IMG/VR virus record: IMGVR_UViG_3300020045_006388 | Location: 1-30,201 of that record | Direction: 5' to 3' (one strand) | From: a virus | Lineage: Duplodnaviria; Caudoviricetes | DNA length: 30,201 nt | In this document: positions 2,147 through 19,217 of the stretch, piece by piece | Layout: each line of letters opens with the position of its first letter | Position numbering within the stretch: the first letter of the stretch is position 1 | Notes under the pieces: generated by a model | Databases searched by the model: none | What the model was told of the DNA's origin: nothing | What the model saw: the letters and a program-made list of their open reading frames with translations, nothing else | Program-made: the position numbers and the translations under genes

Positions 2147-2341
2147 TTATTCGTTATCGAGCTTCCACTCGGGAAGACACTCGTAGCAGATGTTCACCTG
2201 ACCGAAGCCGCCTTTAGAATCAAGGCAGGCATCGCGAGTGGTGAGCAGCGTGTCGTCGGTGAAGTCCTCTTCACAACAGAAGCAGCGCCACACGTCGGGC
2301 GTATTACTATCCTCCGGGTAGGTGAAGGGAGCCTCTTTCAT
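2147..2341 (-). CDS. Small Cys-rich hypothetical protein
   Basis: CFCC and CYEC motifs; ATGA overlap with the upstream gene. Confidence 0.55.
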   Translation of the reverse strand: MKEAPFTYPEDSNTPDVWRCFCCEEDFTDDTLLTTRDACLDSKGGFGQVNICYECLPEWKLDNE

Positions 2342-2496
2342 TTGCTGGCTTTCTTGATCCCAAGCGCAACGTCGAACAGGTACTCGCCGGTCTTGGGCAA
2401 GCTCCACTCTTTCTTGTTGGCCAGTTCTAGAAGCTTTGGGTACGCCTTTTCTGAAGGCTGAACCTTGATTCGGTTGTCTATGCGTTTCGTGCTCAT
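2338..2496 (-). CDS. 52-aa putative ribbon-helix-helix regulator
   Basis: Manual translation MSTKRIDNRIKVQPSEKAYPKLLELANKKEWSLPKTGEYLFDVALGIKKASK: a beta strand followed by two helices; first gene after a promoter. Confidence 0.5.
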   Translation of the reverse strand: MSTKRIDNRIKVQPSEKAYPKLLELANKKEWSLPKTGEYLFDVALGIKKASK

Positions 2497-2501
2497 GTGC
2501 T

Positions 2502-2546
2502 ATGTGGGTCTAAGCGGGACAATGTGGGGCGATGTGGGATTGTCAA
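2502..2546 (-). promoter_or_regulatory. Leftward sigma70-type promoter with three direct repeats
   Basis: TTGACA on the minus strand at 2541-2546; ATGTGGG at 2502, 2522 and 2532. The -10 element is weak. Confidence 0.55.
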
Positions 2547-2687
2547 CTATTTCCCGTAATAATTATCTTCGCGGTCCTTATCTAGGTGGTGGATAACGAC
2601 TCGCCTGATGATAAAAACCAGCGCTATCACCGTGATAAACGCGAAGGACATGCCGACAATTAAGAGTGGGCAAAGTGGATTGCTCAC
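2547..2687 (-). CDS. Small single-pass membrane protein
   Basis: GTG start overlapping the upstream stop; hydrophobic stretch LLIVGMSFAFITVIALVFII. Confidence 0.45.
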   Translation of the reverse strand: MSNPLCPLLIVGMSFAFITVIALVFIIRRVVIHHLDKDREDNYYGK

Positions 2688-2860
2688 GATTCTTCATCCT
2701 CCTCTTCCAGCCCGAATATATCGCCACGATTCTCGTCCAGGCCGTAGGCCGTTATCTTGATGAAGGCCGCTCGGTTTACGGCAATCCTCCCAATGTTGGT
2801 CTCCGCGTCCTCTGTTAGGTCGGCGTCTCGAAGCGCCTGAATTACTTCGCCGATAGTCAT
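2684..2860 (-). CDS. Hypothetical protein, 58 aa
   Basis: MTIGEVIQALRDADL...EEEDEES; coupled by overlaps at both ends. Confidence 0.5.
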   Translation of the reverse strand: MTIGEVIQALRDADLTEDAETNIGRIAVNRAAFIKITAYGLDENRGDIFGLEEEDEES

Positions 2861-3090
2861 TTTAGTCCCTCCATAAAAGGCATCAGTTCGCTGTGGTCCT
2901 TCGGCCTTCGGTTAGTTGGCTTCTTAGTGTCTTCCGATAGCGGCTCATGCGCGGGCACGTCGAATCGGATAAAGCCCGGCCCTTGCTTCTGCCCATGCTC
3001 CGGCCCTTGCCAGCACTCTTTAACGGTTTGTCCCTTGTTTTGGAAAAGAGCCTGATAAATAGCCTCCCCCGCAGCGATGCGGGGCGAGTG
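2857..3090 (-). pseudogene. 5'-truncated hypothetical gene
   Basis: Open frame ..PRIAAGEAIYQALFQNKGQTVKECW...MPFMEGLK* ends in an ATGA overlap, but has no start near its 5' end, where an in-frame TAG lies at 3091-3093. Confidence 0.4.
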
Positions 3091-14349: not shown

Positions 14350-14689
14350 AGTGACGCATGCCGACAAGGACGACCGTGTTGTGCCGGTAAGCGTCAAACC
14401 GCGCCCGTTCCCGGTTATGATGGATTACAACGGCCTGTGCCAAGCCCTAGCCGATGAATGGGCCGCCCTTGATCCGGTGGATGAAACACGGACGTTATTG
14501 GCTGAGGCCATCAAGGCAATTGGTATCCTCTGCGATGCTCTTGAGACGCGAGAGGAATACATTCGCCGCCTTTATTCGTCCGTGCTCGAATTGAAGGACG
14601 GCATTGAGCAGCATGGCGCGGAAAAGTGGATGCCGCATCGCGTCGAACGTGCGACCAAGATCATAAAGGACTTGCAACCCCATGGCTAA
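14342..14689 (+). CDS. Hypothetical early protein
   Basis: AGGAG RBS; helical sequence; overlaps neighbours. Confidence 0.6.
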   Translation: MVEVTHADKDDRVVPVSVKPRPFPVMMDYNGLCQALADEWAALDPVDETRTLLAEAIKAIGILCDALETREEYIRRLYSSVLELKDGIEQHGAEKWMPHRVERATKIIKDLQPHG

Positions 14690-15380: not shown

Positions 15381-15661
15381 TGACTGATCTTGTGGAAGCC
15401 GTGGCGCGGGCGATCTGCGAGTGCGAAGGCTACGCCCCCAACGGCAGGATGCCCAACTGGCAGAGCAATTGGACGACGTTCATACCATCGGCGAGCGCGG
15501 TCATTCCCCTAGTGTTGGAACGGGCGGCGCTTGCTGTCGGCCACGAACTTGCAATGGTCGAAATGCTTAACGCAGAGGTTGCAGAGCCGTTGTGGATCGA
15601 AGGGCTAGAGCACGCCCACACGCGGGCCGTTGCCGCTATTCGTGGATTGGGGGAGCCGTGA
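15377..15661 (+). CDS. Hypothetical early protein
   Basis: GGAGGA RBS; DLVEAVARAIC motif; last gene before the convergent lysis region. Confidence 0.65.
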   Translation: MMTDLVEAVARAICECEGYAPNGRMPNWQSNWTTFIPSASAVIPLVLERAALAVGHELAMVEMLNAEVAEPLWIEGLEHAHTRAVAAIRGLGEP

Positions 15662-15674
15662 CAGCCAAGCGCCG

Positions 15675-16187
15675 CTATTCTTGTCCTGGGGTAAGCCCAG
15701 TCGCCCAATCATGCGCGCTCACAGCGTAGGTGTAGAGGTCGGTGCAGGCGAGCAAGTCGGCCTCACCCACGACAATTCCGGCGGGCACTGGCGTAGAAAT
15801 TCCGGCACCGTTATCGTCGGCGGCGCTATCGGCTTCGCCGGATGCACTACTATCGGACGCGGGCCGCAGGCGGTGAGTAGCGATGTAGCGAGCAACATCA
15901 GACCGAGCGGCTTCAAGATTGCGAGCGTGTTCATTGTCGGACCTTTCGGCTAGTTCCTGGTAACGGGCTTGCGCTGCGTCATTGACCGCCTGTTGCGCCT
16001 CGCCAGCCTTCACTTGCGCGGCTTCGACGCTGGCAACATAAGCAGCCATGCGGACATCGCACTTGCCTTGCGCGCTATCGTATCCGGCTTCGTAAACGCG
16101 CCACAGCAGCAAGGCGACACCGACAGCGGCCCATAATTGCCAAGGAGCGCGCTTCAGGAAGCCAAGGGCTGTCAGGATGAATGTCAT
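15675..16187 (-). CDS. Rz-like inner-membrane spanin
   Basis: N-terminal TM (WQLWAAVGVALLLW), then an Ala/Gln coiled coil; last gene of the lysis region; GAGGAG RBS. Confidence 0.7.
   Translation of the reverse strand: MTFILTALGFLKRAPWQLWAAVGVALLLWRVYEAGYDSAQGKCDVRMAAYVASVEAAQVKAGEAQQAVNDAAQARYQELAERSDNEHARNLEAARSDVARYIATHRLRPASDSSASGEADSAADDNGAGISTPVPAGIVVGEADLLACTDLYTYAVSAHDWATGLTPGQE
15719..15934 (-). CDS. Embedded Rz1-like outer-membrane lipoprotein spanin
   Basis: Signal peptide with lipobox LTA-C and a Pro-rich mature part; nested in another frame of Rz. Confidence 0.65.
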   Translation of the reverse strand: MNTLAILKPLGLMLLATSLLTACGPRPIVVHPAKPIAPPTITVPEFLRQCPPELSWVRPTCSPAPTSTPTL

Positions 16188-16381
16188 TGTCCAAACTCCT
16201 CGCCGCACTGGTAGCAATGCAGGCGCACGTCATCGCCTTCGCCATAATTACGATGCGGCACAAGGATGCTCATAAATTGCTCGTCGTCCCAGCACTTGCC
16301 GCAAAAGGCCTTGCCAGAGCGTAGGGCTTCCATATCGGACAGCCGTTGACGCGCGCCAGCAAAGGGGATGATATCAGCCAT
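16184..16381 (-). CDS. Small zinc-ribbon protein
   Basis: CGKC and CYQC; MADIIPF start. Confidence 0.6.
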   Translation of the reverse strand: MADIIPFAGARQRLSDMEALRSGKAFCGKCWDDEQFMSILVPHRNYGEGDDVRLHCYQCGEEFGQ

Positions 16382-16628
16382 TGATATCATGGCCCCTTGC
16401 GAAGCCTTTGAACTTCTCGAAGGCCCTCACACCGAACGCAGCCGTTGCTGCAGCGATGTATGCAGCGGCGGCAGTCAGGTCTGGCACTTCCCAATTGACC
16501 AGCGGGATCAGGATGAGGTTCACGATAGCGCCGCCAGCGATGCCTACGCAGGTCACTGGACGCCAAGTTTTGCTAACAAAACAGATCGCGGTATCAACAG
16601 TTCGAGTGATGGTTTCTTTCATACTCAT
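16374..16628 (-). CDS. Holin (GTA 3TM-holin-like)
   Basis: WRP motif, two hydrophobic segments, G.R.FEK.KG basic tail; in the lysis region. Confidence 0.75.
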   Translation of the reverse strand: MSMKETITRTVDTAICFVSKTWRPVTCVGIAGGAIVNLILIPLVNWEVPDLTAAAAYIAAATAAFGVRAFEKFKGFARGHDING

Positions 16629-16642
16629 ATCCGCACCAAACC

Positions 16643-16709
16643 TTGCGAGTAATGGTTGATTGCGGTATAAGAAGCGGGCCGAGAAGCTGCGACAACAGCA
16701 ACCCGGCCC
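16643..16709 (+). promoter_or_regulatory. Promoter and leader hairpin of the HNH gene
   Basis: TTGCGA-17-TATAAG; GGGCCG/CGGCCC outer stem with GCTG/CAGC inner stem. Confidence 0.55.
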
Positions 16710-16735
16710 TGACCACCACGCGAAAGGACCGCGCT

Positions 16736-17254
16736 ATGGATGACAACGAATACACCGCAGAAGAATGGCGGGCAATTCCCGATATTGTTAATTACGAGGC
16801 TTCCAGCTTCGGGCGAATTAAGCGGACCACCGCCAGAACTAGAGGTAAAGTCGGCATCGTTAAGTTGATCATGCGCAGTGATGGGCGATGGGTTGTCAAC
16901 ATTTGTGATGGGCCTGGACGGAGGTGGCAGATGGGCGTTCATCGCCTTGTGTGCGCAGCGTTCAATGGGCCATCGCCAGAGGATAAGCAACTTTGCTGCC
17001 ACAAGGACGGCGATCTGAAAAACAACCGTGCTGACAATCTTTATTGGGGCGATCAGGTGGAAAACATGGCGGACGCGCTCCGTCATGGGACATTCCCCTG
17101 CGGTGCGCGCAATCCCAATTCCAAACTTTCTGATAGCGATGTGTTGGCGATGCGGTCTGATCAAAGGACGCATTACGCCCTCGCTAAAGTGTATAACGTT
17201 AACCAATCGACGATTAGAGCTGCTCGCATCGGGAAGTGTTGGCGTCACATTTAG
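16736..17254 (+). CDS. NUMOD4-HNH homing endonuclease with C-terminal HTH
   Basis: EEWRAIP...YEASSFGRIKR; VHRLV..AF.G...HKDGD..NNRADNL.W....EN; AAGGA RBS; antisense to neighbours. Confidence 0.9.
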   Translation: MDDNEYTAEEWRAIPDIVNYEASSFGRIKRTTARTRGKVGIVKLIMRSDGRWVVNICDGPGRRWQMGVHRLVCAAFNGPSPEDKQLCCHKDGDLKNNRADNLYWGDQVENMADALRHGTFPCGARNPNSKLSDSDVLAMRSDQRTHYALAKVYNVNQSTIRAARIGKCWRHI

Positions 17255-17257
17255 TGG

Positions 17258-17311
17258 CTTGCTGACAAGGCAAAGGGCCGCTTCTTGCCACTTTAGGATT
17301 ACCTGCTTCAT
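17258..17311 (-). pseudogene. Relic 5' end of a holin gene
   Basis: MKQVILKWQEAALCLVSK aligns with holin MKETITRTVDTAICFVSK; ATGA-coupled to the endolysin. Confidence 0.65.
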
Positions 17312-17757
17312 GCGACCAAGCCCGGAATGTAAACAGTCTTGCCGCCGCGCTTCTTTGCGCTCAGTTCCTGATTGCGCATCCGTGGTCCATGGCTGCAATG
17401 CACCCAGCCGCCTTCACCGAACTCATATATGATTTGGTCATATGCCAAATTCTGCATGATATATTGACATACCGCCAGATTAGAGACGCCAGGCACCACA
17501 AAGTCCACCGCCTCACCCAAGCAATGCTGCGAACTGGCAGCGCCACCGACAGCGGTATTCACGCGGGGGGAGCGGTATCCAGAGAATACGCGAACTGGCT
17601 TTCCGTAGTGCGCCCTGACAGGTTCCAGCACCTTTTCGCATAGTGTCGTCATGGCTTTAATCACGTTGGATGGCGCTACGTTCGGAATGCCCTTGCGGAC
17701 AGCGGTGTTTGAGTGGGTCATTTCAGCTAGCGTGAAATGCTCGGTTAGTTGGGTCAC
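17308..17757 (-). CDS. Endolysin, peptidase M15A family
   Basis: HFTL.E...S, SGYRS...N..VGGA..SQH..GEAVD, WVH. Confidence 0.88.
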   Translation of the reverse strand: MTQLTEHFTLAEMTHSNTAVRKGIPNVAPSNVIKAMTTLCEKVLEPVRAHYGKPVRVFSGYRSPRVNTAVGGAASSQHCLGEAVDFVVPGVSNLAVCQYIMQNLAYDQIIYEFGEGGWVHCSHGPRMRNQELSAKKRGGKTVYIPGLVA

Positions 17758-17948
17758 TAGTCTTTCTCCACCCTTCGGCCTATCGTTTCTGCCAGCGCGC
17801 GGTGGATGGTCTGCAGCCGCTGTTCACGGGCGAAGGCTTCCTTGCGCAAGGCCAGCATCACATCGGCAGCTTCGCCATAGCCATCGGCGCGCAACAGCCG
17901 CATCATGTCATCAGACTTGGCTTGCAGGGCGATAAAGTCATTCGTCAT
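17757..17948 (-). CDS. Small hypothetical protein
   Basis: MTNDFIALQAK...; abuts the endolysin start. Confidence 0.5.
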   Translation of the reverse strand: MTNDFIALQAKSDDMMRLLRADGYGEAADVMLALRKEAFAREQRLQTIHRALAETIGRRVEKD

Positions 17949-18074
17949 CTTGGATGCATTCAAAGCTGGGGAGGAGGCCCGCAATGTCGGCAGCGTATAG
18001 ACGCGCAATCTCATATGACATGAGCACCTCGGGGTCGTAATCGGCATTGATGCCTAACCAGTGGTAAGGAAGTG

Positions 18075-19217
18075 TCATGCGACCTCCGATAGCATTTCAG
18101 GGCTTATCATAACACGCCCCACTTGTCCAAATCTCTTGTGATAGGTCACTGCCTGCGCAGCCCGGTCGGCAATCCACCCGCCGCGCGCAGCGTAAGCATC
18201 CCTTGCTGCAAGGGTTGGATGCTGTATAACAGTCACCCCGTTGTATTCCTTTTCGTCCCTGTGGTGGCGGTGGCCGCAGTGGATCTCACGCTTCTTTGTC
18301 CGCCCCCACTCTTGCGGGAATTGCGCGGCGAACAGCAGCGGCAGGCTTTCGTTCTTGACCTTGTGGCCGTGGTGAACGCCAAGCATCACATCACCCCATT
18401 CAAAGACGTAGAACGGCAATTGGCTATCGTTCACAGTTAGGCGCGGTTCGTTTTCGTAGATCACCGTGAATGCATCAACTAGCCACCCGGCGCTTTCCTC
18501 ATCGTGATTGCCCTCGGCAATGATAAGGTGAACGTCTTGATGTGCAGCCAGCGCCCAAGTCACCATGTTGCGGATCAAGCGTATCGCTGCCTGCCGCAAT
18601 TTGGGAAAGCGCGTGTCTGCATCGAGAACATGCTTGCTGGTGGGTGTCAGTGGCAGCTTGCCATCAGTGTGGAGGAAGTCGCCTTGCACATTGATGATTG
18701 CCATTGATGCATTGGGGCTTTGCTCGATCATTGCGCCCATGGCAGCGGCCAGTATCCGCTCGGCAATGTCCAAGTCCCAATCCTGCCCACCCTCACGATG
18801 CCATGCGAGGCATCCGAGGTGGTAATCGGTAAAAGTATAGAGGTTGCATAGATCGCCCATAACGGCCTGTGGAGCACTTACAGGGTCAACGCGGGGTAAC
18901 GTGGCCCGCAAGGCTTCCAGCGCGTCCCTGCGCGCCTCTGCGGCCCGTTCCTGATCGATTGACGACTTGACCCATTGCGCCCGCATGGTGCCGTCGGCAT
19001 CGTATAGGGTGGAAGTGCCTTTGACGTAGTGGCCTTCTGGCACCCGCTGTTCAATGTCGGCAAATTCGGGGAAGGCAATGCGCGCCTGCCTGACCCTGTT
19101 TTCAAGCGTTGCCCGGTGTATTCCGCTTTCCCTAGCGGCGGCTGATAATGTGCCGTGTTCCTTAAGTAGCGCCAAGGCCTCGCGCATTTGTTCTTCAGTC
19201 AGGCCGGGATTTGACAT
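18075..19217 (-). CDS. HTH-containing calcineurin-like metallophosphoesterase
   Basis: N-terminal HTH (AAARESGIHRATL); DYHLG, GDFLH, GNHD, HHGH, GHRH. Confidence 0.8.
   Translation of the reverse strand: MSNPGLTEEQMREALALLKEHGTLSAAARESGIHRATLENRVRQARIAFPEFADIEQRVPEGHYVKGTSTLYDADGTMRAQWVKSSIDQERAAEARRDALEALRATLPRVDPVSAPQAVMGDLCNLYTFTDYHLGCLAWHREGGQDWDLDIAERILAAAMGAMIEQSPNASMAIINVQGDFLHTDGKLPLTPTSKHVLDADTRFPKLRQAAIRLIRNMVTWALAAHQDVHLIIAEGNHDEESAGWLVDAFTVIYENEPRLTVNDSQLPFYVFEWGDVMLGVHHGHKVKNESLPLLFAAQFPQEWGRTKKREIHCGHRHHRDEKEYNGVTVIQHPTLAARDAYAARGGWIADRAAQAVTYHKRFGQVGRVMISPEMLSEVA

Follow-up and report, generated by a model that had tools for sequence, protein, structure and literature searches.

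A backward HNH endonuclease gene inside the start of a putative phage holin gene, and an open antisense frame that may carry ribosomes across it

Homing endonucleases are thought to spare their hosts by residing in introns, inteins or intergenic sites. For GC-rich bacteria, long antisense overlapping genes or shadow ORFs have reportedly been found, with the codon-aligned register said to be the easiest one. Among phages, the closest described systems are the free-standing endonucleases (T4 seg and mob; I-HmuI-type HNH enzymes), which lie outside introns and beside a conserved gene; the parts of PMC2988022 drawn on here name antisense segD and the coupling of mobE with nrdA, and state that cleavage by free-standing enzymes of T4 can occur a long way from the gene encoding them. 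In fungal mitochondria, endonuclease insertions that provide alternative gene ends are described in the sections of PMC4019555 used here (Allomyces atp6, Ophiostoma rps3, Phlebia atp6 and cox2). A third point of comparison is offered by ambigrammatic narnaviruses, in which a reverse ORF over the RdRp gene is under selection according to the cited parts of PMC8316113. Phage endonuclease neighbourhoods, free-standing as well as intron-borne, are covered in the cited portion of PMC10448857, where the layout analysed in this work is not described. Our literature search, with most subscription journals outside its coverage, turned up no account of a phage endonuclease gene spanned by a reverse frame that lacks stops.

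The stretch of DNA analysed here (the window) is a complete virus record of 30,201 nt. It carries an HNH gene on the plus strand between minus-strand endolysin and holin genes, in a lysis region with the following features:

17308..17757, minus strand: endolysin of the peptidase M15 family (PF08291, E 1.6e-23; phrog_894 endolysin, E 4.6e-41)
17258..17311, minus strand: stub, identified from homologs and empty alleles as codons 1-18 of the former holin, now heading the bridge frame
16625..17311, minus strand: bridge frame, 228 codons, codon-for-codon antisense to the HNH gene, with an ATGA overlap at both ends
16570..17257, no strand assigned: inserted cassette of HNH gene, leader, promoter-like site and replacement holin start (joint 16569-17259)
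16736..17254, plus strand: NUMOD4-HNH endonuclease gene, 172 aa (PF07463, PF13392; phrog_59, E 2.4e-37)
16675..16743, plus strand: leader carrying a predicted hairpin (16676-16709); 62 of its 69 nt recur upstream of a different HNH gene in the related contig L001
16643..16671, plus strand: promoter-like site of the HNH gene, TTGCGA-17-TATAAG, read by eye
16623..16672, minus strand: predicted mRNA hairpin over a weak ribosome-binding region and ATG 16628 (-15.8 kcal/mol)
16374..16628, minus strand: putative holin, 84 aa, with a replacement N-terminus (MSMKETIT...; phrog_3427 holin, weak, E 0.004)
16184..16390, minus strand: small cysteine-motif gene overlapping the holin end (phrog_1244, E 0.0013; 93% identical in L001)
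15675..16187, minus strand: Rz-like spanin (phrog_1327, E 1.9e-5)
15934-15719, minus strand: lipoprotein-like ORF of 71 codons embedded in the spanin gene (from the ORF list; role putative)

With the T4 genes as covered in PMC2988022, the window HNH gene shares its position outside introns and beside a conserved gene, its own promoter-like site and its leader hairpin. The T4 genes are intergenic, whereas the window gene lies backwards inside a gene start and comes with a replacement for it; T4 coupling, moreover, concerns translation of the endonuclease itself, while a bypass to the next host gene is proposed here. The fungal insertions of PMC4019555 resemble the window in that a foreign copy of a gene end was brought in and the old end left behind as a relic. 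They affect C-termini, involve LAGLIDADG or GIY-YIG enzymes and are found in organelles, in contrast to the N-terminus, the HNH gene of opposite orientation and the phage operon seen here, and in the window, unlike in the fungal cases, the relic still heads an open frame. By analogy, the window cassette would work like a fungal mitochondrial gene-end replacement without being a member of that group. With the narnaviruses of PMC8316113 it shares a reverse ORF that spans a whole gene and has no known homolog, and in both cases translating this ORF may matter more than its product. Narnaviruses are eukaryotic RNA viruses in which protection of the RNA was proposed, whereas the window is a DNA phage in which the reverse frame of a mobile gene would relay between neighbours.

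Both NUMOD4 and HNH domains of the endonuclease scored above the Pfam cut-off, and the protein matched the I-HmuI structure 1u3e_M (E 1.4e-4). Residues H75, N83 and N96 of I-HmuI, which we take to be the catalytic His and Asn residues, align with H89, N97 and N110, while the D74 position is occupied by Cys. The gene has its own start and stop on the strand opposite to the holin. The site occurs both with and without the insert (see below), Rfam gave no match, and the gene does not lie in an intron or intein; these are traits of a free-standing homing endonuclease, and as judged from its sequence the enzyme appears to be of the free-standing I-HmuI-like HNH type. It belongs to a very large family in a search of protein representatives; a single-protein HNH scan of viral contigs yielded no match. 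The promoter-like site was missed by a consensus scan that demands a final T. The same leader fold was predicted in the window and in L001, Rfam gave no match on cassette or leader at gathering threshold or at E<=5, and the L001 contig was the only match in a leader pattern search. As a side observation, hairpin leaders sharing a common pattern were seen upstream of different HNH genes in the window (16675-16743), L001 (1078-1146), L165, L172, L201 and L256; the pattern had four clear matches among 125 HNH loci, and further variants occur in metagenome run X1.

Identification as a holin is tentative. It is suggested by the position between endolysin and spanin genes, by a single segment exceeding 1.6 in a hydropathy scan with a 19-residue window, and by phrog_3427, which at E<=0.01 matched 28 of the 71 members of the family; Pfam gave no match for the family. 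Neither the holin nor the region beyond the exonuclease gene was found in annotated phage records, and an endolysin search of viral contigs returned 80 loci (43-58% identity), none with the holin by tblastn. A Novosphingobium was the sole bacterial genome in which the holin family turned up, so a sphingomonad host is a guess; among 401 genomes searched around Novosphingobium the holin was present in one and the HNH gene in four.

The preliminary description had proposed that the frame coupled to the endolysin is a remnant of the holin start. Its ATG at 17311 overlaps the endolysin TGA (ATGA, 17311-17308), and the frame begins MKQVILKWQEAALCLVSK. The proposed likeness to a holin start held up: 17 of the 18 stub residues are identical in the intact homolog P0002 and 16 in P0009, also intact, and L001, a related contig whose upstream stretch is 98% identical, has an intact holin that agrees with the stub in 20/20 nt up to 17259. 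Given the P0002 match and the empty alleles, this likeness is more than chance. It breaks off at 17258-17259, which is 3-4 nt away from the stop codon of the HNH gene (17252-17254), in line with the claim that similarity stops where the antisense HNH gene ends. When 70 holin homologs were compared, 54 scored closer to the stub and 14 closer to the new start.

Empty alleles were found in contigs of runs X1 and X3, from two studies, which join 16569 directly to 17259; the evidence consists of contigs with a depth of 4-10 at the joint, and the four runs compared are freshwater metagenomes by their record. A record of X3 covers 16371-16569 and 17259-17336, so that endolysin end, stub and holin body are present in one piece. 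A record of X4, from a third study, follows the stub to 17258 and continues with letters reading WWRP. As pieces of the HNH gene were present in runs X1 and X4, the empty joints in X1 and X3 and the loose end in X4 indicate that filled and empty alleles coexist. The expectation that relatives without the HNH gene would have the endolysin end joined to a holin starting with the stub was thus confirmed by the X1 and X3 contigs and by P0002; without the cassette, endolysin and holin are directly coupled. The cassette, about 688 nt in size, was inserted after codon 18 of the putative holin.

Stub and new start have 26 of 54 nt in common, and a recent duplication of the holin start was rejected on this count. 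Together with homologs P0010 and P0043, which are of the KTWRP type as is the new start, this value suggests import of a diverged allele. Of the target repair that had been proposed, the presence of a replacement start stood, while this start looks more like an imported diverged allele than like a repaired copy. Sliding identity between the window holin and that of L001 was 13-18/24 over the first 96 nt and 21-23/24 over the next 96, so the imported tract probably ends near 16530; the divergence extends to about this position and is not confined to the AICFVSK codons. That a cassette was inserted and the holin start replaced is, on this evidence, almost certain. Separately, the C-terminal holin codons at 16392-16416 differ from L001 and from an X1 contig and match the X3 empty allele, and the holin would seem from these letters to be mosaic at both ends.

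Other gene-end exchanges were noticed in L001. At 573-1911 a different, forward HNH gene follows a diverged exonuclease end (39% to that of the window), and the final 19 codons of an exonuclease of the window type (95%) persist downstream of it, probably as a result of another end replacement; the first ~200 codons of the ORF look unrelated, and it may be a chimera. At 2232-3007, a different endolysin (lysozyme-like by look) and a 110-codon gene lie between a near-identical upstream gene and the holin. The arrangement suggests that this endolysin was swapped as a module.

The bridge frame of the window is open for 228 codons, and its stop (16627-16625) lies over ATG 16628, in agreement with the second ATGA of the preliminary description; the remaining two minus-strand frames contain 12 and 11 stops over the same span. 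Because the bridge is codon-aligned with the HNH gene, stops can arise in it only from TTA, CTA and TCA codons of that gene, and none of the 172 codons is of this kind. The probability of an open HNH stretch was 0.043 with the codon use of the window (8274 codons, including 107 from an out-of-frame row at 14365-14689), 0.077 with third-base use and 0.13 in a model calibrated on forward HNH genes, and the spacer stayed open in 0.33-0.38 of shuffles. Three other genes of the window have antisense runs of 187, 207 and 223 codons. Taken alone (P 0.04-0.13), the open frame at this locus is suggestive only. These values and the long runs in other genes speak for a reading in which insertion and start replacement are real, the open frame is a shadow ORF caused by codon bias, and the holin starts independently from a weak ribosome-binding site or an internal promoter. 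One study reportedly found that GC3 bias is able to mimic reverse ORFs, which counts in the same direction. Against it, the GC content of the window HNH gene is merely 52%.

Some features of the new start itself also speak against an independent holin start. The database gene call places the start at ATG 16622, whereas ATG 16628 gives the commonest N-terminal length of the family: WRP has its W at residue 22 in 47 homologs out of 70 and at residue 20 in 12. The Shine-Dalgarno match of the new start is weak and the start is predicted to be paired: the probability of the ATG being unpaired was 0-0.1, with z -3.9 for 16600-16745, and the predicted hairpin is formed together with the complement of the promoter-like region of the HNH gene. 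A consensus scan of 15400-18200, which is a weak test, revealed no promoter-like or terminator-like site on the minus strand. The second ATGA was discarded as independent evidence: a start codon followed by TGA is the norm of the holin family (51 of 67 distinct starts, with TGA as the upstream stop not confirmed case by case), and the overlap was probably inherited with the imported start.

The relation between orientation and an open antisense frame was examined in HNH homologs. Two scans gave 80 HNH loci each; six other loci were added, and removal of identical proteins left 77 and 48 rows. Flank orientation was derived from a composition score and PHROG scans, some flanks being unscanned or unmatched and some calls relying on the composition score only. 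Thirty-two genes lay backward inside a co-directional run, 79 lay forward, and 14 of the 125 were set aside as convergent or unclear. No antisense stop was present in 16/32 backward genes, with 1.8 expected from each gene's own use of A-ending codons, as compared to 8/79 forward genes (4.8 expected) and 0/14 of those set aside. The excess in backward genes is ninefold over the within-gene codon model and is seen against the forward genes as well; at GC<=0.60 the frame was open in 16/30 backward and 2/59 forward genes. A reverse ORF open beyond chance, as is characteristic of narnaviruses, was hence found at the level of the family. The codon-aligned frame was the only one emptied of stops, as the other two antisense frames contained 3-5 stops per 100 codons.

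In the first sample, where orientation was called with the stop counts in view, 8/19 backward and 3/49 forward genes were open. In the second, orientation was recorded before stop counts were printed, and 8/13 backward and 5/30 forward genes were open (Fisher P 0.006); five of these eight open genes belong to a site already seen, and of four new sites three were open and one had one stop. Counted by site, 9/18 backward sites were open, two had one stop near the HNH start (L178 and L317, otherwise open) and seven had more. At a site in a tail region the frame was open in all eight members, which share 57-96% protein identity and have 35-51% GC. Openness tracks operon orientation in this family and not GC, as illustrated by the open frame of L199 at 35% GC, in contrast to the shadow ORFs of GC-rich bacteria.

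The prediction that the antisense frame stays free of stops in homologous cassettes was therefore upheld for backward genes, which were open far more often than forward ones. The proposed antisense bridge is not universal, since it is absent at 9/18 backward sites. The 16/32 backward genes with stops include two sites next to endolysins that are represented by several members, most of which have 2-9 stops at one site and 7-10 at the other, and backward insertions must be able to survive without a full bridge. Two such non-open sites lie after endolysin genes (1-10 stops; L223, L224, L244, L293, L296 and L307 at the first, L169, L208 and L259 at the second), possibly at operon ends. Forward NUMOD4-HNH genes with antisense stops were noted inside lysis cassettes of L092 (3173-3673), where the gene sits between the window holin family and spanin, and L187 (2498-2998); lysis cassettes appear from such loci to be a frequent landing place of HNH genes. 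While the open forward genes and the closed backward sites fit a shadow ORF, the ninefold excess does not, and we consider that explanation unlikely. Selection has very probably kept the reverse frame open in the HNH family.

If the frame is selected, it might be translated solely to keep the mRNA covered, protecting it from decay or Rho-type termination, or to dampen the HNH transcript that converges on it, the holin being re-initiated independently. The junctions of the bridge frames bear on this possibility. Among open sites with a placeable downstream start, the window included, five of eight have the bridge stop within -4 to +2 nt of that start; for L252 and L275 the downstream start could not be placed. 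The three other sites, which fit mere cover of the mRNA, end 39 nt before the next start (L171), 46 nt inside the next gene (L172) or at a 24-codon mini-ORF lying between (L101). L178 and L317, with their single stop near the HNH start, can also be counted in favour. In contrast, all eight members of the tail-region site have the bridge stop -1 to +1 nt from the next ATG despite spacers of 17-39 nt, and the predicted hairpin over the holin start in the window likewise argues against independent re-initiation. In L248, L258 and L182 the stop is -4 to +2 nt from the next start, with shuffle probabilities of 0.91, 0.025 and 0.018; the frame of L182 (1694-3004), 436 codons antisense to a double HNH protein of 398 aa, begins 5 nt after the upstream stop and ends 2 nt before the next start. 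Part of these matches is inherited, because the His codon of a terminal W-x-H provides a free antisense ATG or GTG near the HNH end (in 14/16 open genes) and start-plus-TGA is the holin norm. Overall, translation for the sake of mRNA cover alone is improbable.

In L101 (identical to L100) a backward NUMOD4-HNH gene at 2371-2986 lies in the 3' end of an endolysin gene and supplies a new C-terminus. An ATG located 5 nt after the new endolysin stop opens 179 codons, followed by the mini-ORF, which is the old endolysin tail and is ATGA-coupled to the same holin family as in the window. By its layout, L101 is a mirror case of the window. Further backward HNH genes between two versions of a gene end were observed in L178 (2430-3090) and L201 (1640-2370), where starts are concerned, L275 (2270-3100; an end) and L252 (230-870; possibly a start). 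As in the window, the relic of L178 stands at the head of the bridge frame and is joined through ATGA.

A function of the 228-aa product itself, for example as a membrane-bound lysis regulator starting with the first 18 residues of the holin, is very improbable. In its favour, the product has a single hydrophobic segment at residue 92 (mean of 2.38 over 19 residues). Against it, there was no family match in Pfam or PHROG; the 34% similarity between the product and the L101 frame is explained by codon alignment with a conserved HNH gene, and open frames adjoin tail and other non-lysis genes. In phages, lysin genes with HNH introns are known, and in group I introns the 5' splice site comes after a U. 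A self-splicing intron, excision of which would restore the holin mRNA by yielding the empty allele and for which there are precedents in lysis and structural genes (tape-measure gene HNH introns in the cited part of PMC10448857), was rejected as having a negligible chance, since the cassette has no Rfam match and ~110 nt of non-coding room, no possible 5' junction follows a U, and the intact replacement start makes splicing unnecessary.

The preferred reading, in which the bridge relays ribosomes from the endolysin stop to the new holin start, is likely for the window locus. The donor of the cassette would have been a phage carrying a diverged holin allele, and the repair would have been one-sided, homologous on the side of the holin body and non-homologous at the HNH end; lysis would have been preserved only where the junction kept the register of the stop-free frame. 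After the endolysin stop, ribosomes would resume translation at the stub and traverse the HNH antisense strand, melt the predicted hairpin on arrival, stop at the ATGA and restart on the holin. The translated mRNA would also escape Rho-type polarity on holin and spanin genes, and the bridge peptide is probably waste. Unfolding of a hairpin by the incoming ribosome is a standard mechanism of translational coupling.

The window locus points to another route by which a homing endonuclease may spare its host, namely replacement of the broken gene end while the reverse strand is kept translatable. On balance, we favour the broader view that a widespread class of phage homing endonucleases is ambigrammatic by selection, having shed TTA, CTA and TCA codons so that the reverse strand serves as a portable ribosome bridge. 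If this is true, these endonucleases can land backwards inside coupled operons, even in gene ends that they replace, without causing polarity, and they would represent a protein-coding, splicing-free alternative to introns and inteins for silent insertion. Backward HNH genes without TTA, CTA and TCA would be the genomic signature, and unannotated translated antisense ORFs would be expected in many phage late operons. The family would then add a prokaryotic example of a reverse frame that is selected for being translated.
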